Below are positions 8,919 through 63,609 of a stretch of DNA of 64,000 nt, piece after piece (position 1 is the stretch's first letter; every line of letters starts with the position of its first letter). The notes under the pieces were generated by a model. It made no database searches and had not been told where the DNA came from. It saw only the letters and a program-made list of their open reading frames with translations. This stretch comes from a virus (Duplodnaviria > Heunggongvirae > Uroviricota > Caudoviricetes). A program made the translations under genes and the position numbers. The stretch is from the IMG/VR virus record IMGVR_UViG_2711768037_000005, positions 3,040 through 67,039 of that record; one strand, given 5' to 3'.

Positions 8919-8993
8919 GATGGTGTAGCTCAGCGGTAGAGCAGTTGGCTGTTAACCAACTGGTCGGTGGTTCGAATCCACCCACCATCGCCA
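8919..8993 (+). tRNA. tRNA-Asn (anticodon GTT)
   Basis: cloverleaf traced by hand: acceptor GATGGTG/CACCATC, D-arm GCTC-AGCGGTA-GAGC, anticodon arm GTTGG-CTGTTAA-CCAAC, T-arm GGTGG-TTCGAAT-CCACC, encoded CCA. Confidence 0.85.
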
Positions 8994-8998
8994 ATTTA

Positions 8999-9085
8999 GG
9001 GGAGTTAGTCCGTAGAGGTAGCGGTGTAGACTGTAAATCTACTGTCATGGCGACTCGGGTGGTTCGACTCCATCACTCCCCACCA
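8999..9085 (+). tRNA. tRNA-Tyr (anticodon GTA), long variable arm
   Basis: acceptor GGGGAGT/ACTCCCC; anticodon arm GTAGA-CTGTAAA-TCTAC; long variable arm; T-arm GGTGG-TTCGACT-CCATC; encoded CCA; D-arm atypical. Confidence 0.7.
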
Positions 9086-9089
9086 AATT

Positions 9090-9165
9090 GCCGGTTTAGC
9101 TCAGTTGGTAGAGCGGCTGCCTTGTAAGCAGGATGTCAGCGGTTCGAGTCCGTTAACCGGCACCA
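9090..9165 (+). tRNA. tRNA-Thr (anticodon TGT)
   Basis: acceptor GCCGGTT/AACCGGC; D-arm GCTC-AGTTGGTA-GAGC; anticodon loop CTTGTAA; T-arm AGCGG-TTCGAGT-CCGTT; encoded CCA; one mismatch at the base of the anticodon stem. Confidence 0.75.
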
Positions 9166-9656: not shown

Positions 9657-9743
9657 GGAGAGTAGGGAGCATGGTGCTCAAGCGGTCTTGAAAGCCGTCC
9701 CATTGCGCAAGCGATGATGGTTCGATTCCATTACTCTCCGCCA
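9657..9743 (+). tRNA. tRNA-Ser-like (anticodon TGA), type II with long variable arm
   Basis: acceptor GGAGAGT/ACTCTCC; anticodon arm GCGGT-CTTGAAA-GCCGT (two G-U pairs); T-arm GATGG-TTCGATT-CCATT; encoded CCA; D-arm short and atypical, so could be degenerate. Confidence 0.55.
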
Positions 9744-54392: not shown

Positions 54393-55097
54393 ATGAACAA
54401 CCTCCAGTTAGAGCATTTTAACGTCACAGGCCATTCTGATTTTCCTTTCAAGTTTACATTGAAAGGTTATGCAGAGGATGCGGTAGGCCAGATCATTATT
54501 GATAAAGGCATCGTTAAGTTTGAGGGGGATTTTGATGAATCCGCGAAAACATTCATAGACTTCGTTGCCAAACGTTGGAGCGAGCAATGGAAAAACCTGG
54601 AAAAGCGCGCCAATGAGTTTGATCGGTTCATGGATGCAATGGATGCAGCAAAAGAGGCTCTTGATGCCGGGACTCCGTTAGATCTGGAGTCACTTTTCAA
54701 CGGCGAAGTGGCCTCTGCGATGTTCGCCACCATGTTCGCGGGTGAGTTCGTCCGCAGCGGTGCCAAAAACTACCTTGAGCTGGATTACAACGTCCCTGCA
54801 ATTGGCGATTTCGTCGTTACCATCCAACGCAAAGAAGGTAAGACGCCAGGTGAACGCGTCGCAGAGCTTGAGGCCGTTGTGGATCAGCGTAACGGAGAGT
54901 GTGACCGTTTGATCAACGAGCTTCATGCACTTCGGGAAGAAAGAATATGCGCGGGTAGTAATACACGTAATGCAGCGGATATCTACTTCCAGTTAGTTGA
55001 GGAATGCCAGATTCCACCAGGTGGCTCTCTTGTCGATTACGTAAGACATTTAATGGCGGAAGTTAGCTCCAGCCATAAAGATGGTGAGGTGCGCTGA
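54393..55097 (+). CDS. hypothetical protein
   Basis: 234 aa ORF after motif-A palindrome and GAGAAAAACACATG. Confidence 0.5.
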   Translation: MNNLQLEHFNVTGHSDFPFKFTLKGYAEDAVGQIIIDKGIVKFEGDFDESAKTFIDFVAKRWSEQWKNLEKRANEFDRFMDAMDAAKEALDAGTPLDLESLFNGEVASAMFATMFAGEFVRSGAKNYLELDYNVPAIGDFVVTIQRKEGKTPGERVAELEAVVDQRNGECDRLINELHALREERICAGSNTRNAADIYFQLVEECQIPPGGSLVDYVRHLMAEVSSSHKDGEVR

Positions 55098-55477: not shown

Positions 55478-55507
55478 ACGCTACAAATCCTTCGGCATGA
55501 ATAAATA

Positions 55508-55575
55508 AAGGCCATAAGTTGTGGCCTTAAATAAATTGTTTTCTACCTTTTCTTGTTTGTGAAAATAACCACGAC
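55508..55575. repeat. ~65-bp direct repeat unit, copy A (GC hairpin AAGGCCATAAGTTGTGGCCTT + AAATTGTTTTCTACCTTTTCTTGTTTGTGAAAAT)
   Basis: ~85% identical by eye to copy B at 61781-61853; hairpin plus T-rich tract looks like terminator plus promoter/operator. Confidence 0.6.
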
Positions 55576-55596
55576 TAGAAAACAACGGAGTTAAGA

Positions 55597-56238
55597 ATGT
55601 CTAGTATTTCCGAAGCACATATGTTCGCCGCTGGCGCTCATGGTGGCGTTGGTCAGAAAAGAAAATATACCGGCGAAGACTACATCAACCACCCGGTTGC
55701 TGTCCGAGATATTGTTGCATTGCATGACGGAACCGTGGAGATGCAGATCGCGGCGCTTCTGCATGATGTGGTCGAAGACACCAATGTAACCATAGAGATG
55801 GTTCGTGATCACTTCGGTGAGCGCGTAGCTGAAATGGTTCAGGCTCTGACCAACATTGCAAGGTCAGAAGACGGCAATCGAATACAGCGTTTCATCATCA
55901 ATGTCCGGGAGCTGGAGCAAAATCTCGACATGCAGACGCGCATGATCAAGCTGGCTGACCTGCTCGACAATACCTCTTCTATTGTGAGTCGCGATCCTGA
56001 GTTTTCAGCTATCTACCTTGCAGAGAAAGAGCTGATGCTGGACGTACTTTTTAACGGGAAGGAGATTGGTGCCAACGCTGATGTTGTCGAGTACATGGAG
56101 AGGATAGGTATAGAACACCCGTTGTTATTAAGCGCAAAGGCGAAAGTCACTGAAGGTATTGCGCTTCTGAAACCGGTACACATCAAACGTTATGAAAAAC
56201 ACAAATCGCTGATCTGGAGCGCGTGGGAGGCTGCATGA
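55597..56238 (+). CDS. HD-domain phosphohydrolase, SpoT/RelA-hydrolase-like (small alarmone hydrolase candidate)
   Basis: 213 aa; HPVAVRDIVA...AALLHDVVEDT matches the H...HD motif of (p)ppGpp hydrolase HD domains; no synthetase domain. Confidence 0.55.
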   Translation: MSSISEAHMFAAGAHGGVGQKRKYTGEDYINHPVAVRDIVALHDGTVEMQIAALLHDVVEDTNVTIEMVRDHFGERVAEMVQALTNIARSEDGNRIQRFIINVRELEQNLDMQTRMIKLADLLDNTSSIVSRDPEFSAIYLAEKELMLDVLFNGKEIGANADVVEYMERIGIEHPLLLSAKAKVTEGIALLKPVHIKRYEKHKSLIWSAWEAA

Positions 56239-56777
56239 AGGTAGAAAAAATAGATGTTCTTTCCTTTGTGTTGACAGAGCTGGAGCGTCTCGATCCGGTT
56301 CGAGTGATGATTGAAAACTACGAACCTGGTAAGGGAAGAATCACCATCACCTGCTACGGAAAAGCCTGGACAGCGGCTTGGTTTGCTATGGGCGGTGATG
56401 ATGTGCAGACGTTCATTAAGCGAGTTAGCAACGACTATCTAATCGACAATTTCGACCCTCAACTGCTAAGCACGGTCGACGATGACAACGATGCAAATCT
56501 GCTTTTCGTGAAGTCAGAAATCATAAAGTTACGAAGAGAGAGAGAAATCGACGCCGTACAGGCTCGCGAAATGTGGGACGAGGCGGAAAACGCTGATGAC
56601 GTAAAAGAAAGCTGCTGTTGTTTCGGCGTCGGTAACAAACTGCTGAATCTCTTTGGTGATGATCCGTGGTATGCCGACTGGCCAACTGTACCAAACCCGA
56701 AATACCAGTATCTGGAACGCATTGTGAACGCGGTACGTGAAGGGCTGAAAGAGTTAGACAAGTTAGAGGCATCGTAA
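56223..56777 (+). CDS. hypothetical protein
   Basis: 184 aa ORF. Confidence 0.45.
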   Translation: MGGCMKVEKIDVLSFVLTELERLDPVRVMIENYEPGKGRITITCYGKAWTAAWFAMGGDDVQTFIKRVSNDYLIDNFDPQLLSTVDDDNDANLLFVKSEIIKLRREREIDAVQAREMWDEAENADDVKESCCCFGVGNKLLNLFGDDPWYADWPTVPNPKYQYLERIVNAVREGLKELDKLEAS

Positions 56778-57313
56778 TGAGAGAGAAAATCAAGAACCCG
56801 GTCGTCGTATTGTATAAACGGGAAACCAGCGATTCTTATGCGGTATCCATCACTGATGGAAGCCAGAACATGCACGATGGTCTGCTAATGGCCTCCGTAT
56901 CTCCTGATGATTCGGACTACCCTTTCGCCACTTTCGCTATGGTTGGTTACTACATGGCTGCCGAAATTGAGAAGTTGCGGGCGCAGAGAGACGCATTAGC
57001 GGCGGAGAATGTGGCATTGCGATCTAAGGCTGCGGAACTGGCACATGAAGCGTCAAAAATTTACTCGGCATATAACGCCACTATCACAGAGCCTGACGGG
57101 GATTTTATGGACATGCAGACATTGCATGAAATGCAGTGCATAGAAACCCCAGCCACCGATGCTTTCCTGGCTGAAATTGAACGCAAAGCAATCCGCAAGT
57201 TCATTAACAGCATTGAACACATCCTGCGTGACAAGCTGTCACCGTATGACACCGAAGAGATGCTTGAGGCTATGCGTATTTTTCTGGAAGAACAGGGAGG
57301 TGAGCAAAAATGA
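56777..57313 (+). CDS. hypothetical protein with coiled-coil (lambdoid Ea22-like region protein?)
   Basis: 178 aa; coiled-coil LRAQRDALAAENVALRSKAAEL; family assignment tentative. Confidence 0.4.
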   Translation: MREKIKNPVVVLYKRETSDSYAVSITDGSQNMHDGLLMASVSPDDSDYPFATFAMVGYYMAAEIEKLRAQRDALAAENVALRSKAAELAHEASKIYSAYNATITEPDGDFMDMQTLHEMQCIETPATDAFLAEIERKAIRKFINSIEHILRDKLSPYDTEEMLEAMRIFLEEQGGEQK

Positions 57314-58127: not shown

Positions 58128-58451
58128 ATGGCCACATCGCATTATGCAATCACCCAGGAAAAAGTATTTCGCTTGCTCGAACGTCTGGAGGCGCTCGCCA
58201 CGGAGGAAGATATATCCCCGGAGATGCTGGTTGAGTGCAGCCGTGTGATATTGCGTCACAAGAACGACATCGCGCGGCTGACATCTGGCGCACCATCCGT
58301 ATCAGCCAGTCCAACGCTTTATTGCAGCTTCTGCAACAAATCCCAGCACACCGTTAAAAAGTTAATTGCCGGGGACAACGTTTTCATCTGCAACGAGTGC
58401 GTGAAAGATTGCAACAACATTATCCAGGAAGATCAAAGGGAATCAGCATGA
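58128..58451 (+). CDS. protein with C-terminal ClpX-type C4 zinc-binding domain (ZBD) fused to a novel N-terminal region
   Basis: C-terminal [39 protein letters not shown] is ~75% identical by eye to the E. coli ClpX N-domain [39 protein letters not shown], including all four Cys; no AAA+ module follows. Confidence 0.75.
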
Positions 58452-61764: not shown

Positions 61765-61780
61765 GCATCCCTTCTCCATT

Positions 61781-61853
61781 AAGGCCACAACTAGTGGCCT
61801 TAAACAATTTGTTTTCTACGTTTTCTTATTTGAGAAAATCACGTTGCTGGCAG
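61781..61853. repeat. ~65-bp direct repeat unit, copy B (hairpin AAGGCCACAACTAGTGGCCTT + AAACAATTTGTTTTCTACGTTTTCTTATTTGAGAAAAT)
   Basis: paired with copy A at 55508-55575. Confidence 0.6.
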
Positions 61854-62484: not shown

Positions 62485-62510
62485 GTGGTGCATTGCACCA
62501 CCTTTTTATC
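62485..62510. terminator. bidirectional terminator hairpin between convergent umuD'-like and apbC
   Basis: GGTGGTGCA-T-TGCACCACC followed by TTTTTAT. Confidence 0.6.
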
Positions 62511-63609
62511 ACACTGCGCGGAATGCGATTTCGCTAGGTATTACTTCACCTTGCCAATACATTTGGGCAGCAACGCGATCTGCGAGGTCACGATAAATAG
62601 CCGTAAATTCGCTATCTGGACGACTAATAACGGTTGGTGTTCCGTTATCCAGATCTTCACGAAGTGAGATATGAAGTGGCATTTGGCCTAACAACTGCGT
62701 GTTGTATTTCTCGGCCAGTTTCTCTGCGCCACCGGTGCCAAAAATTGGCTCGTGATGACCGCAGTTACTGCAAATATGCACACTCATGTTTTCGACGATA
62801 CCCAGTACCGGCACTTCGACTTTTTCGAACATCACAATGCCTTTCTTCGCATCGATCAGCGCGATGTCTTGCGGCGTAGTTACCACAACCGCACCAGTTA
62901 CAGGAATGTTCTGCGCCAGCGTCAACTGAATATCACCAGTGCCCGGCGGCATATCGAGAACGAGATAGTCCAGATCAGGCCATAGAGTTTCCTGCAACAT
63001 CTGCATCAGCGCCTTGCTGGCCATCGGTCCACGCCACACCATTGCATTGTCGTCGGTGACCAGATAACCAATAGAGTTGGTTGCCAGGCCATGAGACATG
63101 ATAGGTGCCATGTGAGTACCGTCAGGTGAGGTTGGACGTTGGTTTTCCGCGCCCAGCATGGTTGGAATTGATGGACCATAGATATCGGCATCCAAAATAC
63201 CAACTTTCGCACCTTCAGCAGCCAACGCCAGTGCCAGGTTTACCGCCGTGGAGGATTTACCCACGCCGCCCTTGCCTGAGCTGACGGCGATAATGTTCTT
63301 AACGCCATTAATGCCTGGTTGGTTTTTGACGCGCTTAAGCGTGGCAATGTTGTACGACAGCTTCCAGTCAATAGCCTTTGCGCCAGTGATACGGAGCAGA
63401 TCACTACTACATTGCTCTTTCAGGTCTTCAAAAGGCTTATTCCACACGAAAGGCATGATTAGTTCGACATGCAGTGTGTCATCCATCAACGCAACATGGT
63501 GTAACGCTTTAAGCGTAGTCAGGTTGTGTTTCAGGGTTGGGTGCTGAAAATTAGCCAGCGTACCGGCTACCATTGCTCTCAGGGCATCCGGCGATTTGGA
63601 CTCGCTCAT
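62509..63609 (-). CDS. apbC: Fe-S cluster carrier ATPase ApbC/Mrp (chromosomal housekeeping gene)
   Basis: 366 aa; near-identical to remembered E. coli Mrp over most of its length (AVSSGKGGVGKSSTAVNLALALAAEGAKVGILDADIYGPS, ICSNCGHHEPIFG). Confidence 0.95.
   Translation of the reverse strand: MSESKSPDALRAMVAGTLANFQHPTLKHNLTTLKALHHVALMDDTLHVELIMPFVWNKPFEDLKEQCSSDLLRITGAKAIDWKLSYNIATLKRVKNQPGINGVKNIIAVSSGKGGVGKSSTAVNLALALAAEGAKVGILDADIYGPSIPTMLGAENQRPTSPDGTHMAPIMSHGLATNSIGYLVTDDNAMVWRGPMASKALMQMLQETLWPDLDYLVLDMPPGTGDIQLTLAQNIPVTGAVVVTTPQDIALIDAKKGIVMFEKVEVPVLGIVENMSVHICSNCGHHEPIFGTGGAEKLAEKYNTQLLGQMPLHISLREDLDNGTPTVISRPDSEFTAIYRDLADRVAAQMYWQGEVIPSEIAFRAV

Follow-up and report, generated by a model that had tools for sequence, protein, structure and literature searches.

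Hydrolase gene and predicted active site

The stretch of DNA analysed here, 64,000 nucleotides of the IMG/VR virus record IMGVR_UViG_2711768037_000005 (hereafter the window), carries a gene for a 213-amino-acid (aa) protein that is assigned, on sequence and predicted fold, to the small alarmone hydrolases (SAHs), single-domain enzymes of the RelA/SpoT homologue (RSH) family. The gene lies in an accessory region of an SSU5-like phage-plasmid, is overlapped at its 3′ end by a second open reading frame (ORF), and is preceded by its own ribosome-binding site and by a 65-nt intergenic element (Table 1). A promoter scan found no sigma-70-like site on the plus strand upstream of the gene. The copy on a RefSeq plasmid is 100% identical and is annotated WP_053265190.1, 'HD domain-containing protein', and proteins of 98% identity have been recorded hundreds of times.

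Profile searches gave matches to the RelA/SpoT family that, as sequence scores, are far above chance. The protein matched Pfam HD_4 with E=9e-19 and 68.1 bits (cut-off 27.2), NCBIfam TIGR00691 (spoT_relA) with E=4.7e-25 over profile positions 1-123 of 687, which is the N-terminal region, the SpoT equivalog NF008303 with E=8.5e-17 over the N-terminal hydrolase region only, and phrog_990 ('metal-dependent phosphohydrolase') with E=4e-54. The protein does not reach the whole-protein cut-off of TIGR00691, which is to be expected for a chain that lacks the synthetase and C-terminal domains. HD_4/HD, at residues 8-135, was the sole Pfam architecture, and the Pfam scan found no synthetase, TGS or ACT domain in the 213 residues. 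An initial annotation, made by a model from the sequence alone, had described a stand-alone SpoT-like HD hydrolase without synthetase or regulatory domain, and these searches agree with it on both points.

Table 1 Features of the hydrolase locus and of the surrounding window
Feature	Position	Strand	Basis or remark
Coding sequence, 213-aa small alarmone hydrolase (PaSpo-type RSH hydrolase)	55597..56238, including stop	+	ORF, ATG to TGA
GGAG Shine-Dalgarno sequence (ribosome-binding site)	55587-55590	+	6 nt 5′ of the hydrolase ATG, direct sequence reading
R22-K23 ... Y29 ... H32-P33 codons (QKRKYTGEDYINHP), predicted substrate-phosphate/base contacts and first metal-ligand histidine	55660..55695	+	Alignment
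AALLHDVVEDT (residues 52-62), predicted H56-D57 metal ligands and E60-D61 catalytic dyad	55750..55782	+	SpoT, Rel and MESH1 show the same motif when aligned
KLADLLDN, with K118, D121 (predicted fourth metal ligand) and N125	55948..55971	+	KLAD..(H/Y)N is the aligned motif in SpoT, Rel and MESH1
Two-gene accessory cassette of ~1.25 kb (hydrolase and downstream gene)	55572..56823	+	In the window and SSU5, absent from Cyrano; three-way DNA alignment
Downstream 180-aa gene, PF26211 / phrog_3451 (ORF 56235)	56235..56777	+	ATG overlaps hydrolase stop (ATGA); RefSeq start agrees
65-nt intergenic element (hairpin 55508-55528 and T-rich box)	55505..55569	+	Direct-repeat family D1, immediately 5′ of the cassette
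Second copy of the 65-nt element	61778-61842
DUF4942 methylase, 561 aa	52646-54331		phrog_6263
ORF 54393	54393-55097		N-terminal 100 residues match phrog_3451
ORF 56777	56777-57313		Contains the 3′ breakpoint of the cassette
107-aa zinc-finger protein	58128-58451		Pfam zf-C4_ClpX
tRNA genes Asn(GTT), Tyr(GTA), Thr(TGT)	8919-9165 (and 9657-9743)		Rfam-confirmed
Host-like apbC (iron-sulfur carrier)	62509-63609	-
Host-like metG (methionyl-tRNA synthetase), start only	from ~63766 to window end	+

All of the predicted catalytic and contact residues (R22, K23, Y29, H32, H56, D57, E60, D61, D121 and N125) are carried by the window protein. Its segment QKRKYTGEDYINHP aligns with the MESH1 segment RRKDPEGTPYINHP, and the predicted metal set of H32, H56, D57 and D121 was aligned with the counterparts in SpoT, Rel and MESH1. 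Across a family alignment of 42 hydrolase homologues R22, Y24, Y29, H32, P33, H56, E60, D61, T62, K118, D121 and N125 were invariant, and K23 and D57 nearly so. Residues of the R22, K23, Y29 and N125 type contact the substrate in this family, and an ED dyad placed directly after the HD pair (HDxxED), present here in LLHDVVEDT, distinguishes RSH hydrolases from generic HD phosphohydrolases. Together, the conserved residues correspond in the alignments to the H..HD..D metal site, the ED dyad and the substrate contacts of (p)ppGpp hydrolase domains, and the H...HD signature AALLHDVVEDT, which had been singled out in the initial annotation, forms part of this set.

The same alignment was supplied to AlphaFold2, which returned an all-helical model with a predicted local distance difference test score (pLDDT) of 97 and a predicted template modelling score (pTM) of 0.92. 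The helices that lie outside HD_4/HD are part of the SAH fold in this model, so that the entire chain is predicted to form one helical domain. Of the PDB neighbours listed by Foldseek (50, with E up to ~5e-3), every one was an RSH hydrolase domain or an RSH protein, with the best superposition on MESH1 (3NR1; TMt 0.82, root-mean-square deviation 2.6 A), and a PDB sequence search returned RelA/SpoT-family hydrolases only (Acinetobacter baumannii SpoT, Mycobacterium tuberculosis Rel, human and fly MESH1, Lmo0812, RelSeq and bacterial SAHs). Membership of a generic HD phosphohydrolase clade, against which the initial annotation had itself cautioned, was rejected on the motif and fold evidence. 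The protein is therefore described, from its sequence and model, as a single-domain RSH hydrolase with an intact predicted active site, and its identity and class of chemistry are assigned with very high confidence.

Correspondence to PaSpo(SSU5) and other hydrolases

The protein is already known, as a close counterpart of a named and experimentally tested enzyme, PaSpo(SSU5), and both the enzyme family and this kind of element are well documented. SSU5_099 (gp099, AFL47026.1) of Salmonella phage SSU5, annotated as 'putative guanosine polyphosphate pyrophosphohydrolase/synthetase', shares 86.4% amino acid identity with the window hydrolase over all 213 residues (tblastn), and the order of DUF4942 methylase, small ORFs, HD gene and overlapping downstream gene is common to the window and SSU5. 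The SSU5 SAH was placed in the PaSpo subfamily by Jimmy et al. (PNAS 2020, PMC7229694), and the orthology evident from 86.4% identity and synteny assigns the window hydrolase to the same subfamily. The two proteins agree in length, catalytic residues, genomic position and element type, and differ by 29 substitutions, which fall mostly in the C-terminal helices (ratio of nonsynonymous to synonymous substitution rates, dN/dS, of 0.24 vs 0.14 in the core). They also differ in host, E. coli for the window element and Salmonella for SSU5.

The tested phenotype of PaSpo(SSU5) concerns toxic small alarmone synthetases (toxSAS). In toxicity-neutralisation assays PaSpo(SSU5) counteracted five of the five validated toxSAS, namely CapRel, PhRel2, FaRel2, PhRel and FaRel (Jimmy et al. 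Table 1, PMC7229694), and it has since been in use as a laboratory antidote for the expression of FaRel2 and CapRelSJ46. Four of the five toxins pyrophosphorylate tRNA at its 3′-CCA end (Kurata et al., bioRxiv 10.1101/2021.04.30.441581), and FaRel is a producer of (pp)pApp. A later preprint describes PaSpo-SSU5 as 'removing the tRNA modification', a statement resting on the earlier papers that it cites. Prophages of E. coli, Salmonella, Enterobacter and Klebsiella encode CapRel systems, by which several coliphages are blocked (PMC9712102), and SSU5-like elements live in the same hosts as these prophages.

Among other relatives the best structural match is MESH1 (HDDC3; PDB 3NR1, 5VXA, 9CHY), with 27% identity and the same H..HD..ED..D..N site. 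MESH1 neutralises toxSAS, as does PaSpo(SSU5), and it also removes the pyrophosphate from the tRNA CCA end in vitro, an activity shared by ATfaRel of Cellulomonas marina (Kurata et al., bioRxiv 10.1101/2021.04.30.441581). It differs in being a eukaryotic (metazoan) protein of ~179 aa that is reported to be an NADPH phosphatase. Shorter homologues lack two features of the phage-plasmid clade, an additional helical insertion (~residues 159-176) and a C-terminal helix. ATfaRel and the SAH of phage PVP-SE1 are single-domain RSH hydrolases like the window protein and cross-neutralise all tested toxSAS by degrading the product, but they belong to the PbcSpo subfamily, unlike the PaSpo-type window hydrolase. 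ATfaRel restores aminoacylation of pyrophosphorylated tRNA in vitro (bioRxiv 10.1101/2021.04.30.441581), and its operon includes its toxSAS, whereas the element that carries the window hydrolase has no synthetase.

The best PDB sequence matches were the long RSHs SpoT and Rel (PDB 7QPR, 5XNX, 1VJ7, 6S2T; E 1e-13 to 1e-14 over residues 10-138), which have the same motifs. In the long RSHs the synthetase, TGS and ACT regulatory domains control the hydrolase, whereas the window protein is the hydrolase domain alone. PaSAH of Pseudomonas aeruginosa (6YVC, 6Z3N), RelH of Corynebacterium glutamicum (7QOD) and the (p)ppApp hydrolase of Bacteroides caccae (7SMG) are single-domain proteins of the same fold, with 21-24% identity in structural alignments, and are chromosomal rather than carried on a phage-plasmid; PaSAH gives cells a partial rescue from Apk1, a toxin that is a (p)ppApp synthetase.

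Carrier element, accessory cassette and distribution

The window region matches non-mobilizable plasmids of ~110 kb from E. coli and relatives at 97-98.5% identity. In plasmid pOkiPb01698_2 the hydrolase gene is 100% identical and the window match is 99.69% over 19.4 kb, and the remainder of the plasmid has genes for terminase, portal, capsid, tape-measure and tail proteins together with ParB partition proteins. Further matches were to Salmonella phage SSU5 and to the Escherichia phages Cyrano, PhiR41_1 and CMS-2020a, and the window is, as judged from these matches, an SSU5-like phage-plasmid of E. coli. The initial expectation that the SAH belongs to a mobile element is borne out by this assignment.

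Three-way alignment placed the hydrolase gene and its downstream neighbour in a short accessory cassette (Table 1). In BLAST comparisons Cyrano matched the window through 55571 and resumed at 56824, inside ORF 56777, and no HD gene is present in the Cyrano annotation. The 65-nt element that abuts the cassette on its 5′ side has a second copy at 85% identity (0 matches expected by chance); the two copies show two differences, located in the loop-proximal part of the hairpin, with pairing kept. Each has the layout AAGGCC-N9-GGCCTT (the hairpin), then TTGTTTTCTAC-N-TTTTCTT-N-TTTG-N-GAAAAT, and both RNA folding (z=-2.2) and the terminator scan recovered the hairpin. Conservation of the element extends to Cyrano and SSU5, and its copies in the window flank a variable accessory block of ~6.2 kb that begins with the hydrolase. 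The element could act as a terminator/promoter or operator module, or serve as a recombination boundary at which cassettes are exchanged. Rfam found tRNAs only, and nothing else, in the window.

The downstream 180-aa protein matched phrog_3451, a family of unknown function, with E=5e-89. Within this 287-position profile, positions 13-101 match the N-terminal 100 residues of ORF 54393 and positions 105-282 match the whole of ORF 56235; because both match parts of phrog_3451, the ORF 54393 N-terminus and ORF 56235 are one protein in other phages. Several ORF 56235 homologues are fused to other domains (DUF551, PF24881), and the sequence comparisons indicate domain shuffling in an Ead/Ea22-like accessory region. 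On Klebsiella SSU5-like plasmids, a clade of 53%-identical hydrolases, represented by K. quasipneumoniae pKqq_SB1124_3 (L006, 2501-3139), sits upstream and not downstream of the DUF4942 methylase, without a PF26211 neighbour; the hydrolase gene itself has therefore come to lie at different accessory-region sites through independent placements.

Complete E. coli genomes (5,426) were used to estimate the frequency of the gene. The DUF4942 methylase, which combines a DUF4942 domain with a methyltransferase-like region at the C terminus (phrog_6263, 'DNA methyltransferase'), is kept across SSU5-like elements, and its gene served as the marker for counting them. By megablast, which would miss more divergent alleles, the hydrolase gene was found in 36-41 of the genomes, always on plasmids, and the methylase marker in 187-251. 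The dN/dS between the window and SSU5 was 0.20 for the whole gene and 0.14 for the catalytic core, and between the window and a 78% Klebsiella orthologue 0.06 and 0.04, respectively. These values (dN/dS 0.05-0.2) indicate that the hydrolase coding sequence is under purifying selection.

Decayed relatives were also identified. In P0010 and P0012, from Enterobacter/E. coli plasmid relatives, in-frame fusions to an AAA-ATPase or to an ORF 54393-like N-terminus have lost H32 and H56-D57, and P0011 is a truncated hydrolase of 139 aa found on 139 contigs. A related locus, L002 (plasmid NZ_CP027369.1, 22530-23219), encodes a 61%-identical hydrolase paralogue of 230 aa adjoining metG, just past the equivalent of the window 3′ end, in which HD is replaced by NG (LLNGVIEDT) and the other motifs are retained; in cluster P0009, which is related to this paralogue, HD is replaced by HG. 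The L002 paralogue may, from its motifs, be a pseudo-enzyme that binds without cleavage. At the corresponding site of the window-matching plasmid the metG-adjacent paralogue is absent. Because most SSU5-like elements are without the gene and decayed variants occur, any benefit of the hydrolase would be conditional, and the picture is one of an accessory gene whose usefulness depends on conditions. To the existing description of PaSpo(SSU5) the present analysis adds the organisation of the cassette, the uneven distribution of the gene, the selection acting on it, its decayed variants and the lack of a resident toxin.

Other genes of the element were noted in passing. A tRNA-Ser(TGA) call was made by ARAGORN only and overlaps a minus-strand ORF. 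Upstream in the block that contains the host-like apbC and metG, genes for thymidylate synthase, dihydrofolate reductase, RNase HI, a 3′-5′ exonuclease, a Dam-like methylase and a TerB-family protein are given in the reference annotation. The 107-aa protein encoded at 58128-58451 combines a unique N-terminal part with a ClpX-type C4 zinc finger (E=1e-17), without the ATPase domain, and could be a ClpX mimic or an adaptor-interfering protein.

Proposed role and alternative explanations

Taken as a whole, the evidence is probably best explained by a PaSpo-type SAH that acts as a broad antidote to toxSAS. Family chemistry predicts that H32, H56, D57 and D121 would bind a divalent metal, which is Mn2+ in characterised SAH relatives, and that the E60-D61 dyad would activate a water for cleavage of a 3′-pyrophosphate ester. 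Predicted substrates are (p)ppGpp, (p)ppApp and the pyrophosphorylated 3′-CCA end of tRNA. The toxSAS CapRel, PhRel, PhRel2, FaRel2 and FaRel would confront the element as abortive-infection or exclusion systems on prophages and plasmids of the same enterobacterial hosts. The phenotype of the orthologue suggests that the antidote would be broad and contact-independent, undoing the product of the toxin and not binding the toxin itself, and this phenotype, together with host ecology, suggests that product removal would allow the phage-plasmid to replicate or establish in toxSAS-armed hosts. Lowering of host (p)ppGpp is a plausible side activity. That counteracting toxSAS is the principal natural role, which is argued by analogy to the orthologue, is judged only slightly better than an even chance.

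Several points weigh against this role. Only ~15-20% of SSU5-like elements in the complete E. coli genomes carry the hydrolase allele group, and deleted, truncated and HD-dead variants exist in some lineages. The neutralisation assays of PaSpo were plasmid co-expression experiments, and the literature search gave no assay of purified PaSpo-SSU5, nor of the window allele, on defined substrates. The literature found likewise contains no phage SAH that aids a phage or phage-plasmid in a real infection of a toxSAS-carrying host.

A wider proposal, which is possible if doubtful, is that the hydrolase belongs to a translation-protection toolkit of SSU5-like phage-plasmids, as a natural anti-defence gene that erases a tRNA modification. 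The other parts of such a toolkit would be the tRNA genes (Asn, Tyr, Thr), the methionyl-tRNA synthetase and, in some relatives, the dead hydrolase paralogue near metG, and its effect would be that the tRNA pool stays usable where the host is armed with defences that target tRNA, CapRel-type toxSAS among them. tRNA-Gly and tRNA-Thr are reported targets of the toxSAS FaRel2 (PMC11245113), and the tRNA-Thr of the element may, speculatively, be relevant to defences of this kind. The literature found has no demonstration of such erasure as anti-defence in a real phage infection.

The strongest competing explanation, which we nevertheless consider unlikely, is that the main role of the hydrolase is degradation of host (p)ppGpp, damping the stringent response and keeping ribosome, DNA and protein synthesis going for plasmid maintenance or lytic growth, with toxSAS neutralisation as a by-product of promiscuity. 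Homology to the domains with which SpoT and Rel hydrolyse (p)ppGpp, with all catalytic residues in common, is consistent with it, as is the description of the relatives MESH1 and RelH as (p)ppGpp hydrolases, and the host-like thymidylate synthase, dihydrofolate reductase, metG and tRNAs in the same block would fit host reprogramming. However, neutralisation of toxSAS is the sole tested phenotype of PaSpo-SSU5, with no ppGpp hydrolysis or effect on host ppGpp in the literature found, E. coli already possesses SpoT, and most SSU5-like elements are without the gene, which is therefore dispensable for the basic life cycle. The initial annotation had offered both possibilities, countering of nucleotide-signalling defence and reprogramming of the stringent response. 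The former gains support from the toxSAS-neutralising orthologue of 86% identity, whereas for the latter, acting via ppGpp, there is no report for the PaSpo subfamily in the literature found. The overall interpretation of the initial annotation is supported, and its caution on the substrate was suitable.

It is improbable that the main substrate is a non-alarmone 3′-phosphorylated metabolite, such as the NADPH or 3′-phosphoadenosine 5′-phosphosulfate (PAPS) reported for MESH1, or another signalling nucleotide. Structures of MESH1 bound to NADPH and to PAPS are among the close structural neighbours of the model, and promiscuity of orphan SAHs has been reported (PMC9765508). Against this, the orthologue rescues cells from toxins that act through (pp)pApp or 3′-pyrophosphorylated tRNA and therefore accepts 3′-pyrophosphate substrates in vivo, and no evidence was found for any other substrate.

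A third explanation, that the hydrolase is a type IV antitoxin of a toxic alarmone synthetase on the same element, as ATfaRel is, in an addiction or defence module, is very improbable and largely refuted. The ATGA overlap with the next gene resembles a bicistronic toxin-antitoxin layout, and an SAH serves as the antitoxin in the C. marina faRel operon. However, the RSH synthetase signatures E-h-Q-h-R-T and RxKxxxSxxxK, scanned in six frames, gave 0 matches in the window, in the other 46 kb of the matching plasmid and in the related locus L002; no synthetase is annotated on the matching plasmid and no RSH domain was found in the neighbour genes. Because synthetase motifs and annotation are absent, the hydrolase is regarded as an orphan and not as the antitoxin of a co-resident toxSAS, and a resident toxSAS partner was rejected. 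The overlapping gene does not supply one: its product had no match in the Pfam copy, NCBIfam or PADLOC, and its AlphaFold2 model (pLDDT 83.5) had no PDB neighbour at E<0.1 (best E=0.17) and no RSH-like fold. Its family is common in chromosomal prophages and other plasmids without the HD gene, and the 53%-identical SAH clade is without this neighbour, so that the two genes co-travel but are not a dedicated pair; the downstream gene was accordingly rejected as a dedicated functional partner. PADLOC models gave no match at E<=0.01 for the hydrolase or its immediate neighbours except a marginal one for ORF 56777 (0.0029).

Least credible is that the gene is a decaying, non-functional remnant carried by a mobile element, for although relatives with HD-less deletion fusions (P0010, P0012), the 139-aa truncation (P0011) and HG or NG dyads exist, the window copy is disfavoured as such by its full length, its complete set of catalytic residues, its good ribosome-binding site and the lineage dN/dS of 0.05-0.2.

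The practical value of identifying the window protein as a PaSpo-type SAH is mostly better annotation, the RefSeq name being merely 'HD domain-containing protein'. If neutralisation of toxSAS is its natural role, this would be the first clear case in which a phage or phage-plasmid escapes an abortive-infection toxin by enzymatic reversal of the damage, 3′-pyrophosphorylated tRNA or ppApp, as opposed to a block on sensor or toxin. Confirmation would also make it easier to explain the host range open to SSU5-like phage-plasmids, which are common in clinical Enterobacteriaceae.

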